DNA of 29,769 nucleotides, taken from contig CACZSJ010000172.1 in the NCBI GenBank assembly GCA_902783825.1, forward strand, positions 1-29,769. Reading direction: 5' to 3'. Of the stretch, positions 9,028 to 27,474 are shown one piece after another. This DNA is from Oscillospiraceae bacterium (GTDB taxonomy: Bacteria > Bacillota > Clostridia > Oscillospirales > Oscillospiraceae). Numbering within the stretch: position 1 is the stretch's first letter; each line of letters starts with the position of its first letter. The notes below the pieces were generated by a model. That model did not search any database and was not told the DNA's origin. It was given only the letters and a program-made list of their open reading frames with translations. A program made the position numbers and the translations under genes.

Positions 9028-9783
9028 TCAATTTTCGTAGGAATCCAGCGTCGTTTTTGACCATTTTTCCATGGGAACTGCGCAGAACAGTTTGCACAAA
9101 TCCGCTTCTGTCAGCTCCCGGAATGCCCCCGGAGCCAGATCTTTCTCCAGGCACAGTTCACCGATGGCCAAGCGTCGAAGCTCCCGCACCGGTTTGCCCC
9201 GAGCGGCCAGCATGCGTCTGACCTGATGGTACTTCCCTTCCACCACCCGCACCAAGCAGCGCTGGTCTCCCAGAGGCTCCAGCAGCGCAGGCAGACAGCG
9301 GGTACCGTCCGCCAGAACCAGGCCGCACGCAAAAGCGGCGGTGTCTTCCGCATCCGGTTCTCCCTCGACTTTTGCATAATACAGCTTTTCAACGCAGGAT
9401 TTTGGCGAAATCACACGATGGGCGAATTCCCCGTCGTCTGTCAGAATCAGCAGCCCGTCGGTATCCTTATCCAGGCGACCCACAGGAAAAATCCCTCTAC
9501 CACACAGAGAAGGCATCAGATCCAGAACGGTTTTTTGCTCTCGATCCTCCGTCGCCGTGACAATGCCCAGAGGCTTGTTCATCATATAATAATGATGGGC
9601 GCGGTACTGCAGCGCCTCCCCGTCCAGCGCCACCGTTTCCCGGGTCGGATCCACCTTCCGTTCAGGATGCTTCTCCAAGCTTCCATCCACCGTGACCCTG
9701 CCGCTTTTGACAACGGCTCTGCTTTCTTTCCGGGAGGCAATGCCCATATCAGAAAGCAGTTTGTCCAGTCTAATCTGCGGCAT
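9028..9783 (-). CDS. rsuA: rRNA pseudouridine synthase, RsuA/RluB family
   Basis: N-terminal S4 domain (IRLDKLLS); NKPLG; catalytic GRLDKDTDGL; EGKYHQVRRM. GGAAGGAG SD. Confidence 0.88.
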   Translation of the reverse strand: MPQIRLDKLLSDMGIASRKESRAVVKSGRVTVDGSLEKHPERKVDPTRETVALDGEALQYRAHHYYMMNKPLGIVTATEDREQKTVLDLMPSLCGRGIFPVGRLDKDTDGLLILTDDGEFAHRVISPKSCVEKLYYAKVEGEPDAEDTAAFACGLVLADGTRCLPALLEPLGDQRCLVRVVEGKYHQVRRMLAARGKPVRELRRLAIGELCLEKDLAPGAFRELTEADLCKLFCAVPMEKWSKTTLDSYEN

Positions 9784-16715: not shown

Positions 16716-16765
16716 GCGCCCCCTTTCCTGTCGCTTGTCCTTATTTGAACAACAGAACCGATGAA

Positions 16766-16798
16766 AAAACAGACTGCGCAGAAAGCGCAGTCTGTTTT
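16766..16798. terminator. Bidirectional intrinsic terminator
   Basis: AAAACAGACTGCGC-agaaa-GCGCAGTCTGTTTT between convergent genes. Confidence 0.9.
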
Positions 16799-16829: not shown

Positions 16830-17891
16830 TCAGCAGCCTGTCTCTTGCTTTACGATGCGCTCCATCTCCATCCACTTCTCTTCCATGTCGCGCAGCAGCT
16901 GAAACTGGGTGCGGCAGCGATCCAGATTTTGCTCCGGACGGTCGATAGAGAAATATCGGTCTCCTTCCAGGTAATCCGCCAGAAAACGGATGCCGCATTC
17001 CAGCGTCATGGTATACGCGCCCAAAGGCAGCGCCTGCCGCTCACTCCGGCTCAGGCTCGGACAGGCTTCGACGAAGCCGCGGGTAAAGACCCGAAACAGC
17101 TCCAAATCCAGAGAAACCTTGGAAAGATCCCGCTCATCCTCTTCTGCTGTCGAGGCGCCGAAACGGATCGCATCACCAAAATCGAACACAGCCAGACCGG
17201 GCATCACAGTATCCAGATCGATGACGCAAAGGGCGCGGCGGCTGTCCTGATCCAGCAGGACGTTGTTGATCTTGGTATCGTTGTGGGTCACCCGAATGGG
17301 AAGCAGCCCCAGCTCACGCATATGTTGCAGCCGACAGCCGCGTTCCTGCCGGGCATAAGCGAAGCGCAATTCTTCCTGCACCAGGGATGCTCTTCCCACC
17401 CGATCCGCCTGCTCTGCCTGGCGCAGCTGTCGATAGCGCTCTGGAGTGTTATGGAAATCTATAATGGTTTCTTCCAAGCGCTCCACCGGGAAGTTTCGCA
17501 GCGTGTACTGGAAGCGACCAAAGGCCCTGGCACACTCCAGAAAATCCTCCCGACTCTCCGGGCGCTGCAGGCAGAGGCTGTTATCCACGAAACGGTAAGC
17601 GCGCCAGCAGCCGCCCTGCCGATCGTTGTAATAGCTCTGTCCATCCCGGGTATCCAGATAGCGGATCATCGCCGGATTCTCTCCCCCCAGCTGCAGGAAA
17701 GCGCTGATCTCCGCCATGTTGTGCATCAGCGCCTCCACATTTGGAAAAACGTGTCGGTTGATCCACTGGAGGATATACTTCTCTCCGCAGTCCGTAGTGA
17801 TCAGATAGGTTTCGTTGATGTGCCCGCTTTTCAGCTGCTCGCAGGTCACCGGCTTTCCGTGAACGGGGAATTGATAGATCGCTTCTTTCAC
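16830..17891 (-). CDS. APH/choline-kinase-fold phosphotransferase, N-acetylhexosamine 1-kinase (NahK)-like
   Basis: GHINETY, FHNTPERY, RVTHNDTKINNVL, IDLDTVMPG, DFGDAIR and LADYLEGDRYF motifs; GTG start. Confidence 0.75.
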   Translation of the reverse strand: MKEAIYQFPVHGKPVTCEQLKSGHINETYLITTDCGEKYILQWINRHVFPNVEALMHNMAEISAFLQLGGENPAMIRYLDTRDGQSYYNDRQGGCWRAYRFVDNSLCLQRPESREDFLECARAFGRFQYTLRNFPVERLEETIIDFHNTPERYRQLRQAEQADRVGRASLVQEELRFAYARQERGCRLQHMRELGLLPIRVTHNDTKINNVLLDQDSRRALCVIDLDTVMPGLAVFDFGDAIRFGASTAEEDERDLSKVSLDLELFRVFTRGFVEACPSLSRSERQALPLGAYTMTLECGIRFLADYLEGDRYFSIDRPEQNLDRCRTQFQLLRDMEEKWMEMERIVKQETGC

Positions 17892-17942: not shown

Positions 17943-19175
17943 TTATTGTTGTCGTTCTTGCTGCGCAACAAGCTGGATCAGATGCAGGAGAATTTCCACC
18001 GTCTGATCCATGCTTTCCACACTGATGTGCTCATAGGGGCCGTGGAAGCCGTCGCCTCCTGTACCCAGGTTGGGACAGGGAAGGCCACGGAAGGATAGCT
18101 GCGCGCCGTCTGTCCCCCCTCGAATGGGTACGGATCGGGGCGACAGTCCCGCTTTGCGGATGGCTTCTTTCGCCATTTCCACCACTTCGGTGCATTCCTG
18201 CAGCTTTTCCGCCATGTTCCGGTACTGCTGCCGAATCCTCAGGTCAGCCGTACCCTCTCCATACTTTTGATTGATTGCCTGTGCAATCTCCTCCAAACGT
18301 TGCAAACGGACGCGGAAGATCTCGGCGTCGTGATCCCGGACGATATAATCCATCTCCGCTCGCTCTACGCTTCCCTTTATCTCCGTCAGGTGATAAAAGC
18401 CCTGGTATCCTTCCGTTTGCGCCGGTGTCTCCCCTTCAGGCAGCATAGCGTTGATCTCCATGGCTACGAGCCCGGCATTGATCATTTTGCCCTTGGCGCT
18501 GCCTGGGTGGACATTGAAGCCATGGATTTCCCAGTGGGCAGACGCGGCGTTAAAGGTCTCGTAGTTGATCTCTTCCGGCGCGCCGCCATCCACCGTAAAC
18601 GCAAAATCCGCGGCCAGGCGTTCCAGATCCAGCAGAGCTGCGCCATGTCCCACTTCTTCATCCGGTGTAAAGCACACGGCGATTCTCCCGTGGGGCAGTC
18701 CTTTCGCCAAGACTTGCTCGCAGGCGGTGAGAATCTCCGCCACACCTGCCTTATCGTCCGCTCCCAGAACGGTGGTGCCGTCCGTGGTAATCAGGGTATG
18801 TCCCAGCCGCCCCGCCAGGCCGGGAAAACGTGCCGGAGACAACACACGTCCGCTGTCTCCCAGGGAAATCTCCTGTCCGTTGTAGTCGGGGTGAAGCAAC
18901 GGTCTCACATTTTCCCCGGAAAAATCCGGAACGGTGTCAATGTGGGCAATCAGCCCCAACGCCGGGCTGTTCTCGCAGCCGGGGCTGGCGGGCAGCGCGC
19001 CATATACGTAGGCATGCTCGTCCTCATAAACCTCCGCAAAGCCCATCTGCTGCATCTCCTGTGCCAGCAGACGGCTCAAATCAAACTGTCTCAGCGTGCT
19101 GGGGGTCTGCGCCGCGTCCTCGGCGCTGGCTGTGTGAACCTGTGCATAGCGGATCAGTCTTTCATACGCTCGCAT
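17943..19175 (-). CDS. pepT: Peptidase T (M20B tripeptide aminopeptidase)
   Basis: AHIDT, LGADDKAG, FTPDEEVG, FTVDGG, HPGSAK, IRGGTDG and FHGPYE motifs. Its SD TAAGGAGG contains the ylmH stop codon. Confidence 0.95.
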   Translation of the reverse strand: MRAYERLIRYAQVHTASAEDAAQTPSTLRQFDLSRLLAQEMQQMGFAEVYEDEHAYVYGALPASPGCENSPALGLIAHIDTVPDFSGENVRPLLHPDYNGQEISLGDSGRVLSPARFPGLAGRLGHTLITTDGTTVLGADDKAGVAEILTACEQVLAKGLPHGRIAVCFTPDEEVGHGAALLDLERLAADFAFTVDGGAPEEINYETFNAASAHWEIHGFNVHPGSAKGKMINAGLVAMEINAMLPEGETPAQTEGYQGFYHLTEIKGSVERAEMDYIVRDHDAEIFRVRLQRLEEIAQAINQKYGEGTADLRIRQQYRNMAEKLQECTEVVEMAKEAIRKAGLSPRSVPIRGGTDGAQLSFRGLPCPNLGTGGDGFHGPYEHISVESMDQTVEILLHLIQLVAQQERQQ

Positions 19176-19185
19176 GGCAACCTCC

Positions 19186-19932
19186 TTACAAATACAGCTC
19201 CGCGTACACGAACTGCCGTCCCTTCCGAGAGGCGCCGCCGAAGCCGGTGATTTTTCCCTTTCCCATTCCCCGGAGAGACAAGACGTCTCCCTCGTGGACC
19301 AAACAGTCCGGTTTAAGGGACTGTGAATAGTTTAAACTGACACTGCCGGCGGCGATCTGACGGGCAGCTTCCGTCCGGGACAGTTTGAACAGCCCGGCCA
19401 GCACCGCATCCAGCCGCGTGCTCTGCACCGTAAAGCTCCTCTCTTCCACCCGCCGCTCCAGCCGCGGCACTGCATCCGGCGTTATTTCCTCCGCCGTCAC
19501 GCTCACCCGCCCCGCCTGATGCAGGTTCAACAGGTGCTGTAAAACACTGGGCAGGCAGAAAATCCAGGCGGTCTCCCCGTCTATGAGAATGTCGCCGACC
19601 CATTCCCGTCCCACGCCCATGCCCAGAACCGCGCCCAGATAGTCCCGATGTCCGGGGCGCCCGAAATGGGCCGTCAGTTTCATGGCGCGCAAATACGCCT
19701 TCGGCTCAAATGCCTCTGCATCCTGCTCCTCCGGCAGGAAAAAGCCCAGGGTCCGCTCGCTGTCCGGCTGTCCGCCGTAAAACAGCAGCCGACAGCCCAC
19801 CCGCTTTTTTCCCCAGGTCTCCAGCTGGAAACGCTCCGCCGGGCTAAGAAACCCAGTCACGGTAACGCAGCCTTTGCGTTGACAGCGGTCAAGCAAATCC
19901 TCCGCCCGCCGCAGCAATTCATGATTTTCCAT
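19186..19932 (-). CDS. ylmH: YlmH/Sll1252-family S4-domain RNA-binding protein
   Basis: TGFLSP, GGxxxSER, HRDYLGAVLGMGVGREWVGDI and C-terminal S4 (STRLDAVLAGLFKLSR...GDVLSLRGMGK); 248 aa. Confidence 0.88.
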   Translation of the reverse strand: MENHELLRRAEDLLDRCQRKGCVTVTGFLSPAERFQLETWGKKRVGCRLLFYGGQPDSERTLGFFLPEEQDAEAFEPKAYLRAMKLTAHFGRPGHRDYLGAVLGMGVGREWVGDILIDGETAWIFCLPSVLQHLLNLHQAGRVSVTAEEITPDAVPRLERRVEERSFTVQSTRLDAVLAGLFKLSRTEAARQIAAGSVSLNYSQSLKPDCLVHEGDVLSLRGMGKGKITGFGGASRKGRQFVYAELYL

Positions 19933-22504
19933 CTTTCAGCCTCGTTTTGTGTGCGTTGCGGTTGCTGTCCTCCAGCACCGTCCGAATCCTCGCCAGCACG
20001 TCCTGCACCTCCACAGCAAACTCCGTCGAGGAGCTGCGCAGTACGCCGGAGCGAAGCGCTGACAGTCGGATCAAATTGTCGCTGGTGATCACACGCACCG
20101 CGTAGTTTCTGCCGATTTCTCCCACCAGGCGTTCAATATAGGCGTCTCCGGTCTCCCCGTCCTTGGTAAAGGCCACGTGGATGTTGTGGTACTCGCTGCG
20201 CTGCCCGGGATTGCCGGGCCTCCGGTAGCCGTCAAAAACCAGCACCAGCTCCGCCCGGGTGTATGCGCAATAACTGGACAGCATGTCCATCAACCTGCTT
20301 CGGGCCAGATCCAACTGCTCAGCCGCCAGGGCCTTGAGTTCTTCCCAGGCAAAGATCAGATTGTACCCGTCTACAATCAGGTACTGTTGTTTTTGCTCCG
20401 TAGGCGGCGGGGCCTCCGGCGCCTCGTTGCGCACGGGCGCAGAATAAGAGCGGCGACGGATCGGCCCGAATTCCCGCTCCATGATCGCCTCCAGCTCTCG
20501 CTGGTCAATGCTGATGCTCCGGTGAACCGCCGGTTCCGGATCATCTTTGGTTCCCGGGAGACAAGTCTCCAAATGCATGTATGCGGGCACCTGATCCCAC
20601 TTGACCAAGAACCCCGCCCCGTGGGCGCAAAACACGGAATCCGCCGTGTTCTCCGGATCCCGCTCGGGATCGTAGCCCATGCTTTCCACCAGCTCCTGCT
20701 GTCTGCTGCACGGCCGGTATCCGTCCGGCTGCAGGCTGATTCTTCCCCGCCCGTGGGTATAGGCCAGAAGCTCCGTCTGATACTCGCCCAGCCCGGCAAC
20801 CGGCGCGCTGCCCTTCAGGCACAGCATGCCGTCCTGCAGTTCCTCCGGAGAGTCGAAACTGCCGTCCATGCTGCGGATGTCGCTGATGGCCCGACCGATC
20901 TGCTCGGCTGGAACTTCCAGGGAGAAGGCATACCAGGGCTCCAGGAGCACGGAACGCGCCTGCATCAGCCCCTGCCGCACCGCACGCCAGGCCGCCTGAC
21001 GAAAATCGCCGCCTTCTGTGTGTTTCAAGTGCGCCTTGCCCGCACACAGCGTGATTTTGATATCGGTAATGGGTGAAGCGGTCAGCACACCCAAATGTTG
21101 TTTCTCCTGCAAATTGGACAGGATCAGCCGTTGCCAGTTTCGATCCAGCTCGTCCTCGGGACAAGTGCTGTCCAGCACGATCCCGCTGCCCGGAGGCAGC
21201 GGCTCCAAAAGAAGATGCACTTCCGCGTAGTGGCGCAGGGGCTCAAAATGGCCCACGCCCTCCACGGTGTCCGCTATGGTCTCCCGGTACAGAATCCGCC
21301 CTCTGTCCAACGTCAGCTCCACGTCAAAGCGATCCCGGACCAGACGTTTGAACACCTCCGCCTGTACTTTGCCCATCAAGCGCACGGATATTTGCCGCTG
21401 CGCCGCATCCCAGTCCACGTGCAGCTGGGGATCCTCTTCATCCAGCAGCTGCAGCTTGGGCAGAAGCTGCGCCGCGTCCACTCCCTGAGGCAGGCCGAGC
21501 CGATAGCTGACAACCGGCTCCAGCAATCGCGGCGCCGCGTCCGGCTCCCCGCCCAATCCCTGGCCCGGCCAGGTGGCGCTGAGGCCCAGCACTGCGCAGA
21601 TTTCTCCCGCTTCCACCGTCTCCACCGTCTCATATTTCGTTCCGGAATACAAGCGAAGCTGGGTGCATTTTTCTTCCCGTTCTTCGCCCCTCTCGTCCCG
21701 ATAGCGCAGCGGCATCCGCACCCGGAGGCTTCCACCGGTCAGCCGCAGGTAGCTCAGACGTTGCCCCTGGGTATCCCGGCCAATTTGAAACACCCGCGCA
21801 GCGAAGTCCTCCCTGGGCTGCGGCACAGGCGCATAGCGGTCCAAGGCATCCAGCAGCGCGTCAACGCCATCCAGCTTGAGGCCGGAACCAAACAGGCAGG
21901 GTACCAGCTCACGCCCGGCAATCAGCCCGGCAATCTCTCGCTGCTCCAAACACCCGTTCTCCAAATAGCGCTCCATGGCCTGCTCGCTGCGAAGGGCAAG
22001 ACCTTCCCAAAAAGCTTCGTCCTGTCTGGAAAAATTCAGGCATTTATCCCCCAGCCGTTTTTGCAGCTGCGCTGTCAGCGCCGTTTCTCCAGGCCCCGGC
22101 AAGTCCATCTTACTGACAAACACAAAGCAGGGCACCTGATACTGCTCCAGCAGCCGCCAAAGCGTCTCTGTGTGGGCTTGTACGCCGTCGGTTCCGCTGA
22201 TGACAAGCACCGCGCAGTCCAAAACCGAAAGACACCTCTCCGTTTCTGCGGAGAAATCCGCATGTCCCGGCGTGTCCAGCAAGGTCACAGACGTATGAGG
22301 CAGGGTGAAGCGCGCCTGCTTGGAAAAGATGGTAATGCCCCGCTCCCGCTCCAGCCAGTGCGTATCCAGATAGCTGTCCCGATGGTCTACCCGGCCAAGT
22401 TTTTTGATTTTTCCCGCACGATACAGCATGGCCTCGACCAGGGTGGTTTTCCCTGCGTCCGCATGAGCCAGAATGCCGATCACAGTCTTTCGTTCCGTTT
22501 GCAT
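19919..22504 (-). CDS. TetM/EF-G-like translational GTPase fused to a C-terminal YacP/Rae1 NYN ribonuclease domain
   Basis: G1 AHADAGKTT, G2 ERERGITI, G3 DTPGH, G4 SKMD; EF-G-like domains II-V (HFEPLRHYAEVHL, HLKHTEGGDFRQA, LLEPWY); NYN motifs LIVDGYN, VFDG, ETGD and TSD. Start placed at ATG 22504; the track's TTG 22540 falls on the -35 box. Confidence 0.9.
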   Translation of the reverse strand: MQTERKTVIGILAHADAGKTTLVEAMLYRAGKIKKLGRVDHRDSYLDTHWLERERGITIFSKQARFTLPHTSVTLLDTPGHADFSAETERCLSVLDCAVLVISGTDGVQAHTETLWRLLEQYQVPCFVFVSKMDLPGPGETALTAQLQKRLGDKCLNFSRQDEAFWEGLALRSEQAMERYLENGCLEQREIAGLIAGRELVPCLFGSGLKLDGVDALLDALDRYAPVPQPREDFAARVFQIGRDTQGQRLSYLRLTGGSLRVRMPLRYRDERGEEREEKCTQLRLYSGTKYETVETVEAGEICAVLGLSATWPGQGLGGEPDAAPRLLEPVVSYRLGLPQGVDAAQLLPKLQLLDEEDPQLHVDWDAAQRQISVRLMGKVQAEVFKRLVRDRFDVELTLDRGRILYRETIADTVEGVGHFEPLRHYAEVHLLLEPLPPGSGIVLDSTCPEDELDRNWQRLILSNLQEKQHLGVLTASPITDIKITLCAGKAHLKHTEGGDFRQAAWRAVRQGLMQARSVLLEPWYAFSLEVPAEQIGRAISDIRSMDGSFDSPEELQDGMLCLKGSAPVAGLGEYQTELLAYTHGRGRISLQPDGYRPCSRQQELVESMGYDPERDPENTADSVFCAHGAGFLVKWDQVPAYMHLETCLPGTKDDPEPAVHRSISIDQRELEAIMEREFGPIRRRSYSAPVRNEAPEAPPPTEQKQQYLIVDGYNLIFAWEELKALAAEQLDLARSRLMDMLSSYCAYTRAELVLVFDGYRRPGNPGQRSEYHNIHVAFTKDGETGDAYIERLVGEIGRNYAVRVITSDNLIRLSALRSGVLRSSSTEFAVEVQDVLARIRTVLEDSNRNAHKTRLKDGKS

Positions 22505-22511
22505 GGGAAGA

Positions 22512-22540
22512 ATTGTATCAGTTTCCCCGGAAATAATCAA
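22512..22540 (-). promoter_or_regulatory. Sigma-A promoter for the GTPase-NYN operon, +1 predicted at the start codon
   Basis: TTGATT (22540-22535), 17 bp ending in TGA, TACAAT (22517-22512), 7 nt, ATG (22504). Confidence 0.7.
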
Positions 22541-22709: not shown

Positions 22710-23405
22710 ATGAAACTCAAAAAGATTCTTGTTCTGGAAGACGAGGCCAGCATCCGCAGTTTCGTGGTCATCAACCTGCGCCGCAGCGGATATGAGCCCA
22801 TTGAGGCAGAATCCGGCGTTGACGCTCTGGAAAAGCTGAAGATGAATCCGGACATCTGTCTGGCGCTTTTGGACGTGATGCTGCCGGACATCGATGGCTT
22901 TGAGGTCTGTCGTCGGATTCGCGCCTCCGGCTCCAAGATGGGCGTCATCATGCTCACAGCCAAAAGTCAGGAGATCGACAAGGTCACAGGTCTGATGACC
23001 GGCGCGGACGACTACGTGACCAAGCCCTTCTCCCCCGCCGAGCTGACCGCCCGGGTGGACGCGCTGATTCGCCGTCTGGGCATCGATGACATTGACAAGG
23101 CCAGCAACGAAATCGTCAGCGGCCCATTCCTGCTCAACACCCGCAACCGCACCCTGGAGAAAAATGGCCAGCGTGTAAAGCTGACCCAGATCGAATATCT
23201 GCTGATGCGGCTCTTTTTGCAGAACCCCGGCCGCGCCATGTCCCGGGAAGACATTCTCTCTTCCGTGTGGGGCAATGAGTTCACGGGAGAACTGAAAACC
23301 GTTGACGTGAATATCCGTCGGCTGCGCATTAAGATCGAATCCGATCCCACCGAGCCTGAATACCTGACCACGGTTTGGGGCTACGGCTATAAGTGGGGCT
23401 ACTGA
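22710..23405 (+). CDS. OmpR/PhoB-family response regulator (WalR/PhoP-like)
   Basis: LEDE, LLDVMLP (phospho-Asp), GADDYVTKPFS, and winged helix TVDVNIRRLRIKIE...TVWGYGY; AAGGGGG SD. Confidence 0.93.
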   Translation: MKLKKILVLEDEASIRSFVVINLRRSGYEPIEAESGVDALEKLKMNPDICLALLDVMLPDIDGFEVCRRIRASGSKMGVIMLTAKSQEIDKVTGLMTGADDYVTKPFSPAELTARVDALIRRLGIDDIDKASNEIVSGPFLLNTRNRTLEKNGQRVKLTQIEYLLMRLFLQNPGRAMSREDILSSVWGNEFTGELKTVDVNIRRLRIKIESDPTEPEYLTTVWGYGYKWGY

Positions 23406-23464
23406 GTCCTTTTCTGCCCGCCGGGCGGGCAAGATCGCGTTCTCTTGAGTGAGGTTGACAGATC

Positions 23465-24454
23465 GTGAAAAATCTGAAGATCCAGCTACTTCTGGCCGGT
23501 ATCGCGGTTTTGGCGCTGCTGTTGCTGGGTGTGTGGGCAGTAACCCGTGCCATGCCGACTCTTGCCATGGGCGCCATGGTGGCGGTATGTCTGAGCGTCA
23601 TCCTGCTGATTGTCTGGTTCTGGCGCAGTGTGTCGGACCCCATTGATCAGCTTACAGACTTCGCCGCACAGATCGCCGCCGGCAGCTACGGAAGCCAGTT
23701 GGAAAAAAGAAGTGACAATGAAATAGGACGCCTGACGGACGCTATCAACAACATGTCCCAACAGGTCGCCATGGCGGAAAAAACCCGTACTGAGTTTATT
23801 TCCCAGGTCTCCCACGAGCTGCGCACGCCCTTGACAGCCATCACCGGCTGGGCGGAGACCATTGCCTACGATCCCTCGGTGCAGGACGACTCCCTGCGCG
23901 GGATCCACATCATCTCCAAAGAGGCGGAGCGCCTGACCGGTCTGGTCACGGAGCTTCTGGAGTTCACCCGGATTCAGGACGGCCGTTTCAATCTGCGCAT
24001 CGAGCTGATCGATATTGCCTCGGAGTTGGAAGACGCCATCTTCACCTACGGGGAGCTGATGCGTCAGGCTGGCATCACCATCAACTATTCGCAACCGCCC
24101 ACGGAGATCCCATTGATCCCCGGCGACCCGGAGCGGCTCAAGCAGGTTTTTCTCAATCTGCTGGACAACGCTATGAACCACGGTGGGGACGGAAAACTGG
24201 TAGACGTTTCTCTCCGGCTCAAGGAGGACGGTGTCCATATCCGTGTTCGGGACTATGGCCACGGCATCCCCGAGGCAGAGCTTCCCCACGTCAAGGAAAA
24301 GTTCTACAAAGGCAGCTCCAAGAACCGAGGCACCGGTATTGGTCTTGCCGTCTGCGATGAGATCATCTCCCGCCACAAGGGCAGTATGACCGTGGAAAAC
24401 GCCGTGGGCGGCGGCTGTCTGGTGACGATCGTGCTGCCCATGTCATCCAAATAA
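23465..24454 (+). CDS. HAMP-domain sensor histidine kinase lacking an extracellular sensor loop
   Basis: Two closely spaced TMs; HAMP; H-box SHELRTPLT; N-box LNLLDNA; G1 DYGHGI; G2 GTGIGL. GTG start with GAGG SD. Confidence 0.9.
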   Translation: MKNLKIQLLLAGIAVLALLLLGVWAVTRAMPTLAMGAMVAVCLSVILLIVWFWRSVSDPIDQLTDFAAQIAAGSYGSQLEKRSDNEIGRLTDAINNMSQQVAMAEKTRTEFISQVSHELRTPLTAITGWAETIAYDPSVQDDSLRGIHIISKEAERLTGLVTELLEFTRIQDGRFNLRIELIDIASELEDAIFTYGELMRQAGITINYSQPPTEIPLIPGDPERLKQVFLNLLDNAMNHGGDGKLVDVSLRLKEDGVHIRVRDYGHGIPEAELPHVKEKFYKGSSKNRGTGIGLAVCDEIISRHKGSMTVENAVGGGCLVTIVLPMSSK

Positions 24455-24476
24455 CTGCAATTCTTAGGAGAACACC

Positions 24477-25430
24477 ATGCCCCAAAGCAACAATTCCTGC
24501 GCCTTCCGCACCTCTATTGGCGGTCAGGCGCTGATCGAAGGCATTTTGATGCGCGGCCCCCGAAAGCAGGCTATCGTCTGCCGCACCGCGGACGGACTGG
24601 TGGAAAAGGTGGAAGATGTATCCACCATACGGGATCGCTACCCAGTGTTAAAGCTGCCCTTTCTGCGCGGATGCGTCACCTTTGTCGAATCCATGGTCAA
24701 GGGGATGCAGGCGCTGACTTATTCAGCCAATCTCGTTCCTCTGGAAGAACAGGGAGAGCCGGATAAGCTGGATCAGTGGATCGAAGCCCATTTCTCCGCA
24801 GAAAAAGCCCAGAAGTTGATTATCGGCGTGGCTGTGGTTTTGGGCATCGGCCTTGCCCTGCTGCTGTTTGTCTTTCTTCCCACGATTCTGGTGGGCCTGC
24901 TCCGACCGCTTACTCGCAGCTACCTGATCCGCAACCTCTCTGAGGGCGCGGTCAAGGTGGCTGTCCTTCTGCTGTATATGGCCTTGGTTTCCCGGATGCA
25001 GGATGTCCAACGTCTGTTTTCTTATCACGGTGCCGAGCATAAAGCCATTTTCTGCTACGAACATGGTAAGGCGCTGACGATAGAAAACGTGCGCGAGGAA
25101 TCCCGTTTCCATCCGCGCTGCGGCACCAGCTTTTTGCTGGTGGTCGTTTTGGTAAGCATTCTGGTCAATGCCCTGGTGCGGGTGGATCAGATCTTTGCCC
25201 GCATCGCATGGCACCTGCTTCTGCTGCCCCTGGTGGTGGGCATCAGCTATGAAATCAACCGCTGGTGCGGTGGCCATGACAACTGGCTGTCCGCCCTCCT
25301 TTCCGCTCCCGGGAAGTGGCTGCAGCATCTCACCACCAAGGAGCCGGACGACAACATGATCGCCTGTGCTATCCGCTCCATGGAGCTGGTCATCCCCGAG
25401 GAGAAAGGCTCCGATCTCTGGGGTAGTTGA
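24477..25430 (+). CDS. DUF1385 membrane protein
   Basis: IGGQALIEGILMR, PFLRG, YHGAEHK, RFHPRCGTSF and GISYE motifs; AGGAG SD; lies before prmC. Confidence 0.88.
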   Translation: MPQSNNSCAFRTSIGGQALIEGILMRGPRKQAIVCRTADGLVEKVEDVSTIRDRYPVLKLPFLRGCVTFVESMVKGMQALTYSANLVPLEEQGEPDKLDQWIEAHFSAEKAQKLIIGVAVVLGIGLALLLFVFLPTILVGLLRPLTRSYLIRNLSEGAVKVAVLLLYMALVSRMQDVQRLFSYHGAEHKAIFCYEHGKALTIENVREESRFHPRCGTSFLLVVVLVSILVNALVRVDQIFARIAWHLLLLPLVVGISYEINRWCGGHDNWLSALLSAPGKWLQHLTTKEPDDNMIACAIRSMELVIPEEKGSDLWGS

Positions 25431-25470
25431 GCCCCCCAACACTCTGCCGCAAGGCAGAAGGGAGACAAGC

Positions 25471-26346
25471 ATGAAAACCTATAACGATATTTACATGACA
25501 GCAAGAACCGCGCTTCTGCAGCACGGCGTGGAGGCCTATAATCTGGAGGCTCGGCTACTGGTGGCCCAGGCTGCAGGCAAATCGGTTCCGGAGCTGCTGC
25601 GGGATCTCAAGCTCTATACCACCGACGCTGTGGAAGCCCGGGTTCTGGAATATCTGGATCGGAGGCTCCAGGGAGAGCCGGTGGCCTACATTACCGGCGC
25701 CTGGGAGTTTTATGGTCTGCCCATGCTTGTCACCCGGGACGTATTGATTCCCCGCATGGATACGGAGCTGCTGGTGGACACCGCCAAATCCCTGCTCATC
25801 GGCAAGAATATGAACGCCCGGATTCTGGATCTTTGCTGCGGCAGTGGCTGCATCACATGCGCACTCGGCCACGAGCTGCCCGCCACCAAGCTGGTAGCGG
25901 TGGATTTCAGCGCGCGGGCGCTGGAGGTTTGCCGAAAGAATCTGGCGGCCAATCGGCTCAGCAGCCGGGTCATCTGCATCCAGTCGGACGCCTCCGCTTC
26001 TCCCCCCTTGGGCATCGGGCAATTCGATATGATCGTATCGAACCCTCCTTATATCCCCAGCGCGGAGCTGCAAAGCCTGGATCGCTCGGTCCGGAGTTTT
26101 GAGCCGGCCATGGCCCTGGACGGAGGAGAGGACGGCCTACGCTTTTACAAGAGCATCATCAAGTATTGGAAATCTCTCCTCCGTCCCGGCGGCTACCTGC
26201 TCTTTGAGGTGGGCGAAGGACAGGCGGAGACGGTTAAGGACATGATCCTTTCCGCGGGCTTTGCCTCCGCGGATACCCGGACAGACACCCAAGGCATCCA
26301 GCGGGTCGTCTACGGAAAAGCATACGCAGACAGTGAACTGTATTGA
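25471..26346 (+). CDS. prmC: Release factor glutamine methyltransferase
   Basis: GEPVAYITG, VLIPRMDTE, LDLCCGSGCI, VSNPPYI, ALDGGEDGL and FEVGEGQ motifs. Start at ATG 25471 (GGGAG SD). Confidence 0.95.
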   Translation: MKTYNDIYMTARTALLQHGVEAYNLEARLLVAQAAGKSVPELLRDLKLYTTDAVEARVLEYLDRRLQGEPVAYITGAWEFYGLPMLVTRDVLIPRMDTELLVDTAKSLLIGKNMNARILDLCCGSGCITCALGHELPATKLVAVDFSARALEVCRKNLAANRLSSRVICIQSDASASPPLGIGQFDMIVSNPPYIPSAELQSLDRSVRSFEPAMALDGGEDGLRFYKSIIKYWKSLLRPGGYLLFEVGEGQAETVKDMILSAGFASADTRTDTQGIQRVVYGKAYADSELY

Positions 26347-26367
26347 ATAAGATAAGGAGACAGAACC

Positions 26368-27474
26368 ATGGCTGAAAAGAAAAAGATTCCCGCAATTGTA
26401 ACGCCTGCCAGCAGCGATAAGAAAAAGGCCCTGGAGACCGCCATCGCCAAAATTGAAAAAGACTATGGCAAGGGCACCATCATGCGGCTGGGCGACGATA
26501 TCCCCGTGAACGTGGAAGCTCTGTCCACCGGTTCCCTCTCTCTGGATCTGGCACTGGGCATCGGCGGCGTTCCCCGTGGACGTATCGTGGAAATCTACGG
26601 CCCTGAGGCTTCCGGTAAAACCACGCTGGCTCTGCACGTCGTGGCTTCCGCTCAGAAAAGCGGCGGAGACGCCGCCTACATCGATGTGGAGCACGCGCTA
26701 GAGCCGGCCTACGCCCGCGCTTTGGGCGTAGACATCGACAGTCTTCTGATTTCTCAGCCGGACACCGGCGAGCAGGCTCTGGATATCGCCGAATCCCTGG
26801 TTCGCTCCGGCGCCATTGACGTCCTGGTGGTGGACTCTGTTGCGGCACTGATCCCCCGGGTTGAGCTGGAGGGCGAAGTGGGCGATACCGTAGTTGGCGC
26901 CCTGGCACGGCTGATGAGTCAGGCCATGCGCCGTCTGGCCGGCGCCATCGCCAAGAACAACTGCACCGTAATCTTCATCAACCAGCTGCGCCAGAAGATC
27001 GGTGTGATGTACGGCAACCCCGAGACCACACCCGGCGGTTTGGCCCTCAAGTACTATGCCTCTGTGCGCATTGACGTGCGTCGGATCGAAACGCTGAAGG
27101 TCAACGGGGAGATGATCGGCAATCGCACCCGCGCCAAGGTGGTCAAGAACAAGGTCGCGCCCCCCTTCCGGGAGGCGGAATTCGACATCATGTACGGAGA
27201 GGGCATCTCCCGCGTGGGCGAAATCGTAGATATGGGCGTCAAGCTGGAGATCATCGACAAGGCTGGCGCCTGGTTCACCGTGGATGGGCAGCGGATTCAA
27301 GGTCGTGACGCCGTCAAAGAATTTCTCAACGAAAACGACGAGATCCGGGAGAAGATCGAGCAGGAGATCCGCGATAACGCCTATAAGCTCATGTCTCCTC
27401 AGTCCCGGAAAGCCGCGCAGGTTTCCGGCCGCGCCGGTGTGGACGTAAGCGCGGCAGACTTTGACGGGGACTGA
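26368..27474 (+). CDS. recA: Recombinase A
   Basis: [49 protein letters not shown] and KNKVAPPF motifs. Confidence 0.98.

Follow-up and report, generated by a model that had tools for sequence, protein, structure and literature searches.

A Rae1-type nuclease fused to an EF-G/TetM-like GTPase in Clostridia, and its lineage-specific coupling to ylmH: a gene pair that probably acts on stalled ribosomes

Rae1 (YacP) of Bacillus subtilis is a free nuclease of ~170 amino acids, of the NYN_YacP fold (PDB 5MQ8/5MQ9), encoded in the gltX-cysS-mrnC-yacO-yacP operon. It cuts the mRNA ~12 nucleotides (nt) upstream of the stalled codon, at the stalled ribosome's tail end, and its cleavage on collided ribosomes yields substrates for trans-translation (PMC12407103, PMC13622287). 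The same proposed logic, in which a nuclease cuts mRNA at stalled or collided ribosomes for rescue, is represented by SmrB of Escherichia coli and Cue2 of yeast. YlmH of B. subtilis (PDB 8S1P/8S1U) binds the 50S-peptidyl-tRNA complex and can replace RqcP in RqcH-dependent tailing (Takada 2024, PMC11317155). Here, we describe a locus in which a Rae1-type domain forms the C-terminus of a translational GTPase resembling EF-G and TetM, and in which the gene of this fusion protein overlaps ylmH. The locus lies in the window, by which we mean the whole stretch of DNA analysed, 29,769 nt of contig CACZSJ010000172.1 (assembly GCA_902783825.1) of an Oscillospiraceae bacterium. The source genome belongs to the rumen/gut Clostridia and is a metagenome-assembled genome of 1.67 Mb, in 245 contigs and 86.5% complete. 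The fusion protein and YlmH, as a pair, probably act on stalled ribosomes.

Fusions of this kind have been catalogued before. Atkinson 2015 (BMC Genomics, PMC4342817) reported that in ten clostridial species Tet proteins carry a YacP-like NYN domain, and Matelska 2017 (NAR, PMC5499597) described TetM-like/NYN_YacP fusions in Clostridia, with an unclear role; no later paper on the fusion was found in the literature searched. The window protein shares the architecture and the bacterial class of these proteins and is a member of their family, so the fusion itself is not new. An earlier, sequence-only reading of the locus, which knew of no description of this combination of genes, was wrong as far as the fusion is concerned. 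The coupling of the fusion gene to a relocated ylmH is a lineage-specific variant that was not found in the literature searched.

About ten species were counted in the published surveys, whose discussion turned on tetracycline resistance or rRNA processing, whereas the family seen here is very large. A search with a C-terminal query, and with full-length proteins required, gave more than 5000 clusters at 90% identity, and all 120 among the matches listed have the fusion architecture; at 50% identity, an exhaustive search gave at least 150 clusters. Of the 151 genomes sampled from the window's family, 88 have NYN_YacP, as do 78 of the 301 from its order, always in frames of ~850-950 amino acids unless a contig end cuts them. 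The sample of the class has it in 198 of 300 genomes, as a single copy in 195 of these, be it the fusion or a stand-alone gene of 170-215 amino acids, and the 150 class matches listed divide into ~95 of fusion length and 55 stand-alone frames of 134-216 amino acids. The fusion is the only form of Rae1 found in the order sample, and it is joined to ylmH as a two-gene unit in one subclade. The window genome itself has the fusion as its sole NYN_YacP gene, and a profile search of its contigs gave no stand-alone rae1. The near-exclusive pattern of fusion or free protein, with one copy per genome, fits the fusion as a local replacement of free Rae1. The distribution is consistent with the fusion being this lineage's form of Rae1, a putative functional replacement of the stand-alone protein. 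The domain is not a separate protein of ~170 amino acids and instead forms the C-terminus of a GTPase of 861 or 873 amino acids, depending on the start codon.

From its N- to its C-terminus, the fusion protein has Pfam matches to GTP_EFTU, to EF-G domains II, III, IV and C, and then to NYN_YacP. The identities that the sequence-only reading had given to the fusion, ylmH and pepT were borne out by Pfam, NCBIfam and PDB sequence matches. The GTPase motifs are G1 AHADAGKTT, G2 RGITI, G3 DTPGH, with the catalytic His93, and G4 SKMD; having G1-G4 and the catalytic histidine after DxxG, the protein belongs to the translational GTPase superfamily. Across an alignment of 81 diverse homologues, with 39-54% identity to the window protein, D28, G30, K31, T70, D89-H93, K144 and D146 are invariant. 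The NYN_YacP match covers residues 721-867 with 134.4 bits, against a gathering score of 24.6, and holds the active site, made of DGYN (D724, G, Y726, N727) and the aspartates Asp724, Asp770, Asp799 and Asp821. The DGYN motif and the four aspartates are invariant in the same 81 homologues and are shared, together with the fold, with B. subtilis Rae1, to which (5MQ8) the domain aligns at E 8e-19 over 135 residues with all catalytic positions matched.

The body of the protein shares with TetM/TetO and EF-G the five-domain plan, G1-G4 and the catalytic histidine. It aligns with TetM in one continuous stretch, 21-609 to 5-610, and with EF-G in several pieces. The alignment of domain IV reaches E 2e-8 with EF-G and E 7e-4 with TetM, and its loop I is 4 residues shorter than that of EF-G. 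Scores fall under every curated cut-off. The best NCBIfam match is tet_protect, with 378.7 bits against an equivalog cut-off of 775, while the Tet(M), Tet(Q), Otr(A) and M/W models score far under their own cut-offs, and the EF-G models TIGR00484 and NF009381 give 270 against 659 bits and 315 against 583 bits, respectively. Beyond the common body, the fusion has an extra C-terminal extension, a tether and the nuclease.

An AlphaFold2 (AF2) model of the fusion has a predicted local distance difference test (pLDDT) value of 92 and a predicted template modelling (pTM) score of 0.77, with a well-folded NYN domain. Domain V is continued by a helix, a beta-hairpin and a short helix, in which S635, F637 and G641 are invariant in the 81-homologue alignment. 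The tether of ~60 residues that follows is mostly disordered in the model at 660-718, with pLDDT below 50 at residues 668-679 and 695-711 and a short helix at 680-691, and its length and sequence vary among homologues. Because of this disordered stretch after domain V, the nuclease would be joined flexibly to the factor's end, and not to domain IV, the domain that probes the A site.

The second gene of the pair encodes a protein with the same N-terminal domain, RRM-like YlmH_RBD and S4 domain as B. subtilis YlmH, to which (8S1P_V) it aligns at E 4e-22 over residues 22-240. YlmH_RBD (PF17774) scores 35.3 bits against a cut-off of 23, and S4 scores 20.2 bits, just under 22.8. The window genome has one YlmH_RBD gene, the one at the fusion locus. 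Adjacency was surveyed from the coordinates of the NYN and YlmH_RBD matches within the same genome samples. The fusion gene and ylmH adjoin in 14 of the 151 family genomes, which span ~11 genera, including the window's genus (3 genomes), and each of these genomes has a single YlmH. In all 14 clade loci, ylmH follows the fusion gene on the same strand, with its start codon -19 to +11 nt from the end of the fusion stop codon. This start-stop coupling exceeds chance. A stand-alone rae1 was never adjacent to ylmH in the genomes compared, and no flanking open reading frame is common to the clade loci beyond the genus. Judged from the loci aligned, the conserved unit is the fusion-ylmH gene pair. 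The gene order that the sequence-only reading had proposed as an operon therefore extends beyond the genus for the fusion and ylmH, and stays within the genus for pepT.

In B. subtilis, ylmH lies in the sepF-ylmG-ylmH-divIVA cluster, whereas the window's ylmH lies outside it, relocated behind the fusion gene and translationally coupled. The canonical site, on contig C175 (L059 772-2778), reads ylmE(YggS)-sepF-divIVA-ileS with 27 nt between sepF and divIVA, and both ylmG (YGGT) and ylmH are missing between these two genes. The sepF-yggT-ylmH-divIVA cluster is intact in two other families of the order (G159, G384). A maximum-likelihood tree was built from 33 fusion proteins extracted by motif, leaving out L012, whose gene is cut by a contig end. 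The tree groups the adjacent fusions, with 3 label changes against a shuffled mean of 10.5, and none of 500 shuffles was as low. The ylmH adjacency is best read, on this reconstruction, as one gain and two losses. That ylmH would have been relocated once and then kept coupled supports selection for co-expression. In the same tree, the fusions f9, f10 and f30, which come from other families of the order, nest within the non-adjacent group of the window's family; this may reflect a horizontal transfer of the fusion gene or deep branches left unresolved.

Where the fusion gene has no adjacent ylmH, the next gene is a different, unrelated one in each case, for example signal peptidase II, adenine deaminase, a pyridoxal-phosphate enzyme, an M23 peptidase, DUF445 or an S8 peptidase. 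One genome (G096, L021 3759-4532) has behind the fusion gene a 257-amino-acid open reading frame that overlaps the fusion stop by 4 nt, with ylmH elsewhere in the genome. This frame was considered as a cryptic YlmH and rejected, being of low complexity, matching nothing in Pfam and showing no resemblance to YlmH, and it may be spurious.

Our leading interpretation, which we hold with modest confidence, is that the fusion cleaves mRNA in a ribosome-docked state at stalled or collided ribosomes, and that it is co-expressed with a factor of ribosome-associated quality control (RQC), YlmH. The GTPase module would dock in the factor-binding site of a ribosome with a free or stalled A site, and the tethered nuclease would then cut the mRNA at or beside the docked ribosome. 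The cut would feed upstream ribosomes to transfer-messenger RNA (tmRNA) and SmpB, both encoded in the genome. YlmH, RqcP-like by homology, would bind 50S-peptidyl-tRNA and work with RqcH. Being made from the same message, YlmH would be produced in fixed proportion to the fusion, and the two branches of stalled-ribosome rescue, mRNA cleavage and 50S quality control, would be expressed together. By analogy with Rae1, ribosome-dependent mRNA cleavage that feeds trans-translation is presumed for the fusion; unlike free Rae1, its recruitment to the ribosome would be built in, and possibly GTP-gated. SmrB and Cue2 differ in that their SMR fold is unrelated to NYN and in that they are recruited via the collision interface, not through a translational GTPase. 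The partners that this interpretation calls upon are encoded in the window genome, which has rqcH, smpB, tmRNA, mutS2 and an 88-amino-acid S4 open reading frame of RqcP size. The co-occurrence check set out in the sequence-only reading accordingly found rqcH, smpB, the tmRNA gene and a frame of RqcP size together with no stand-alone rae1. Among these genes is that of RqcH, the factor with which YlmH works in B. subtilis.

Several points weigh against this interpretation. RqcH is present in 141 of 151 family genomes, so close to universal in the family that its co-occurrence is uninformative. In B. subtilis, Rae1 feeds trans-translation, and YlmH belongs to a separate MutS2/RqcH branch; we know of no mechanistic hand-off between the two. 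In the structural model, the nuclease would be attached behind domain V and not on domain IV, and its reach on the ribosome is uncertain. The two genes lie apart in ~60 further genomes of the family that carry both, and adjacency was not seen in any of the fusion-bearing genomes that could be checked outside the family, at least 45 in the order and at least 60 in the class; most fusion genes work without an adjacent ylmH. The neighbourhood survey that the sequence-only reading had put forward has thus carried the ylmH adjacency beyond the genus, but with a single origin and with no case in other families, in the order or in the class sample. On account of that single origin, the adjacency counts as one comparative observation. 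Overlapping frames are also hard to separate, and retention need not mean selection. No RNA contig in the one bovine metatranscriptome bridged a gene junction with 31 nt on both sides. The function of the whole fusion family is, finally, itself a prediction.

A bolder version of the same interpretation makes the fusion a self-contained, GTP-gated rescue enzyme, which would recognise the collided ribosome, license the cut, help splitting by its GTP-driven movement and hand the 50S-peptidyl-tRNA directly to YlmH translated from its own message. We regard this version as unlikely. If true, such an enzyme would join cleavage with tmRNA and splitting with RQC, which are separate branches in B. subtilis. 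A complex prediction of fusion residues 414-873 with YlmH gave a score of 0.00, which speaks neither for nor against binding.

Among the alternatives, neutral linkage deserves the most serious attention, though we find it on the whole doubtful. The fusion and YlmH would be functionally independent, ylmH having landed behind the fusion gene once and been held there by the overlapping frames. A tree with a single origin and two losses fits this account, as does the lack of adjacency in the remaining sampled fusion-bearing genomes of the family, order and class. The gene was already scattered in the window's family, where ylmH elsewhere adjoins unrelated genes such as DUF896, PNP and TSCPD, and residues R173, D175, R186 and R221 of YlmH, invariant in all homologues, are unchanged in the fusion-adjacent copies. 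Against this, the pair has outlasted divergence down to 48% identity for the fusion and 42% for YlmH across the adjacent loci, while all flanking genes changed, and the start-stop coupling was kept throughout the clade. By homology both products act on ribosomes. YlmH is also commoner in NYN-positive genomes than in NYN-negative ones: in the family the counts are 83 of 88 and 35 of 63, respectively, and in the order 77 of 78 and 162 of 223, all uncorrected for phylogeny.

The nuclease might instead be aimed at stable RNA, with the GTPase guiding rRNA or tRNA processing, assembly checking or the decommissioning of ribosomes, and with YlmH as an assembly or 50S cofactor. YacP was first predicted to act in rRNA/tRNA maturation, from its gltX-cysS-mrnC-yacO operon (PMC5499597, PMC4342817). 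Moreover, a nuclease on an EF-G-like factor would sit near the 16S/23S rRNA of the factor site, and the binding of YlmH to the 50S subunit would suit such a role. The catalytic and DGYN residues, however, all match Rae1, and no rRNA-processing genes lie nearby, so we rate a stable-RNA target as quite unlikely.

The sequence-only reading had gone further and proposed a three-step pathway, in which PepT is the dedicated third component and clears the peptides released by rescue. The gene identity is firm (NF003976, 528.3 bits against 255; TIGR01882, 440.1 against 285.75), the ylmH stop codon lies within the pepT Shine-Dalgarno (SD) sequence, no terminator separates the two genes, and the arrangement is kept in genus-level relatives; pepT is probably co-transcribed with ylmH in the window genome. 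However, PepT is a general tripeptidase, and pepT adjoins ylmH in 2 of the 151 family genomes, the window genome and one genus mate. In another genus mate (G137) pepT was not found, and recD2 is downstream of ylmH; in the other clade members pepT is located away from the fusion-ylmH pair. Obvious intrinsic terminators stand directly after ylmH in 6 of 13 related loci, and in close metagenomic relatives fusion-ylmH-pepT is followed by unrelated genes for an MFS transporter, a CBM9 protein and APH. With its adjacency limited to the genus, the very limit that the sequence-only reading had named as refuting its proposal, pepT does not count as a conserved partner; together with the APH-family kinase gene it is a passenger of the unit, in this genus only. 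We consider a dedicated PepT step very improbable.

Least probable of all is a role of the protein in tetracycline resistance, as a ribosomal protection protein to which a nuclease activity may have been added. Its tet_protect match, the best in NCBIfam, its single-stretch alignment to TetM and the naming of one related cluster as TetM/TetW/TetO/TetS family are outweighed by a score far below the equivalog cut-off and below every Tet-specific cut-off, by a domain IV that matches EF-G better than TetM, and by a broad, single-copy occurrence in Clostridia, among housekeeping genes and not close to mobile-element genes. A role in defence was also dropped, because no PADLOC defence-system model was matched by any of the four proteins of the unit.

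The features of the locus are collected in the table below. Four co-oriented genes lie on the minus strand of the window, the fusion gene, ylmH, pepT and an APH-family phosphotransferase gene, with gaps of -14, +10 and +51 nt. The 14-nt overlap of the fusion gene with ylmH and the ylmH stop codon inside the pepT SD, both noted in the sequence-only reading, were read directly from the sequence. Its statement that the operon has no internal terminator likewise stands, as a sequence scan of the minus strand from 22540 to 17943 gave no terminator-like site. The 51-nt gap between pepT and the APH gene has no significant hairpin (z -0.72 against shuffled sequence), and the intrinsic terminator behind the APH gene is the first clear one downstream of the fusion gene on that strand. 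With no terminator before it, the apparent unit here has four genes, and in this genome the four, including APH, probably form one transcription unit. The earlier description of a three-gene operon was correct as to strand, short gaps and lack of a terminator, and missed the fourth gene, which is also found downstream of pepT in genus relatives.

Table 1. Coordinates of the fusion-ylmH locus and its parts within the window.
Feature	Position	Strand	Basis
Candidate promoter	22512..22540	-	-35 TTGATT, 17-nt spacer, extended -10 TG-n-TACAAT; consensus scan
Fusion gene: EF-G/TetM-like GTPase with C-terminal Rae1/YacP NYN	19919..22504	-	Pfam, NCBIfam and PDB sequence matches, AF2
G domain, residues 20-238	21827..22483	-	PF00009 at E 8e-49
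EF-G-like domains II, III, IV, V, residues 246-614	20699..21805	-	PF22042, PF14492, PF03764, PF00679
C-terminal extension of domain V, residues 614-655	20576..20701	-	Homologue alignment; AF2 pLDDT ~95
Flexible tether, residues 656-718	20387..20575	-	AF2 pLDDT 43-75
NYN_YacP (Rae1-type) nuclease, residues 719-873 and stop codon	19919..20386	-	PF05991
Fusion/ylmH 14-nt overlap, ATGGAAAATCATGA	19919..19932	-	Direct reading of sequence
ylmH, 248 amino acids: N-terminal domain, YlmH_RBD, S4	19186..19932	-	Pfam, alignment to 8S1P_V
TAAGGAGG: pepT Shine-Dalgarno containing the ylmH stop codon	19181..19188	-	Direct reading; pepT ATG 19173-19175
pepT, tripeptide aminopeptidase, M20 family (M20B), 410 amino acids	17943..19175	-	NF003976, TIGR01882
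APH-family phosphotransferase gene, 353 amino acids, fourth in apparent unit	16830..17891	-	PF01636 at E 8e-20
Intrinsic terminator: 10-bp GC-rich stem, 5-nt loop, six T	16764..16794	-	Read from sequence

The open frame of the fusion has 873 codons (19919-22540) from a TTG at 22540 and 861 from an ATG at 22504. The likely start, predicted by comparison, is the ATG rather than the TTG, because homologues start ~6-9 residues ahead of GILAH. The single upstream promoter proposed in the sequence-only reading met with a mixed outcome. Promoter-like matches are not enriched, at 4 against 2.3 +/- 1.6 in shuffles, but the element TTGATT-17-TGnTAnAAT, 7 nt ahead of the ATG, has the same spacing in five genus-level relatives whose spacers have diverged. 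With the element ending so close to the ATG, the mRNA would have no leader or hardly any, and the fusion gene appears to be leaderless, with no SD. The leaderless-type element is present at the fusion gene of the genus relatives L003, L004, L016 and L017; in more distant relatives, such as L006, the fusion gene has a normal leader carrying GGAGG. One RNA run, the bovine metatranscriptome, carries part of the stretch (share 0.07), with short identical contigs on ylmH and on the fusion gene, and no transcription start was seen in this run.

On the plus strand, a response regulator gene starts at 22710, divergent from the fusion gene. It opens a series (22710-27474) of response regulator, histidine kinase, DUF1385, prmC and recA, in the same order in genus relatives (L016-L018). 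DUF1385 and prmC, a release-factor methyltransferase gene, relate to translation termination, and the two-component system separates them from the fusion gene. Also in the window, at 9028-9783 on the minus strand, is another gene with an S4 domain, a 266-amino-acid frame with its S4 match at 9646-9771.

Relatives of the fusion are labelled as resistance proteins, one database cluster bearing the name [quoted passage not shown], although the window protein scores less than half of the curated cut-off. Such TetM-family labelling likely leads to false resistance-gene calls and inflated counts in gut and rumen metagenomes. For the biology of ribosome rescue, the fusion family offers a natural and testable answer to the question of how Rae1 locates stalled or collided ribosomes: with the nuclease covalently tied to a factor-site GTPase, the binding site, the GTP dependence and the position of cleavage become directly measurable. 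The coupling to ylmH, lineage-specific as it is, may be the first hint from genomes of a tie between Rae1-type cleavage and the RQC factor YlmH.

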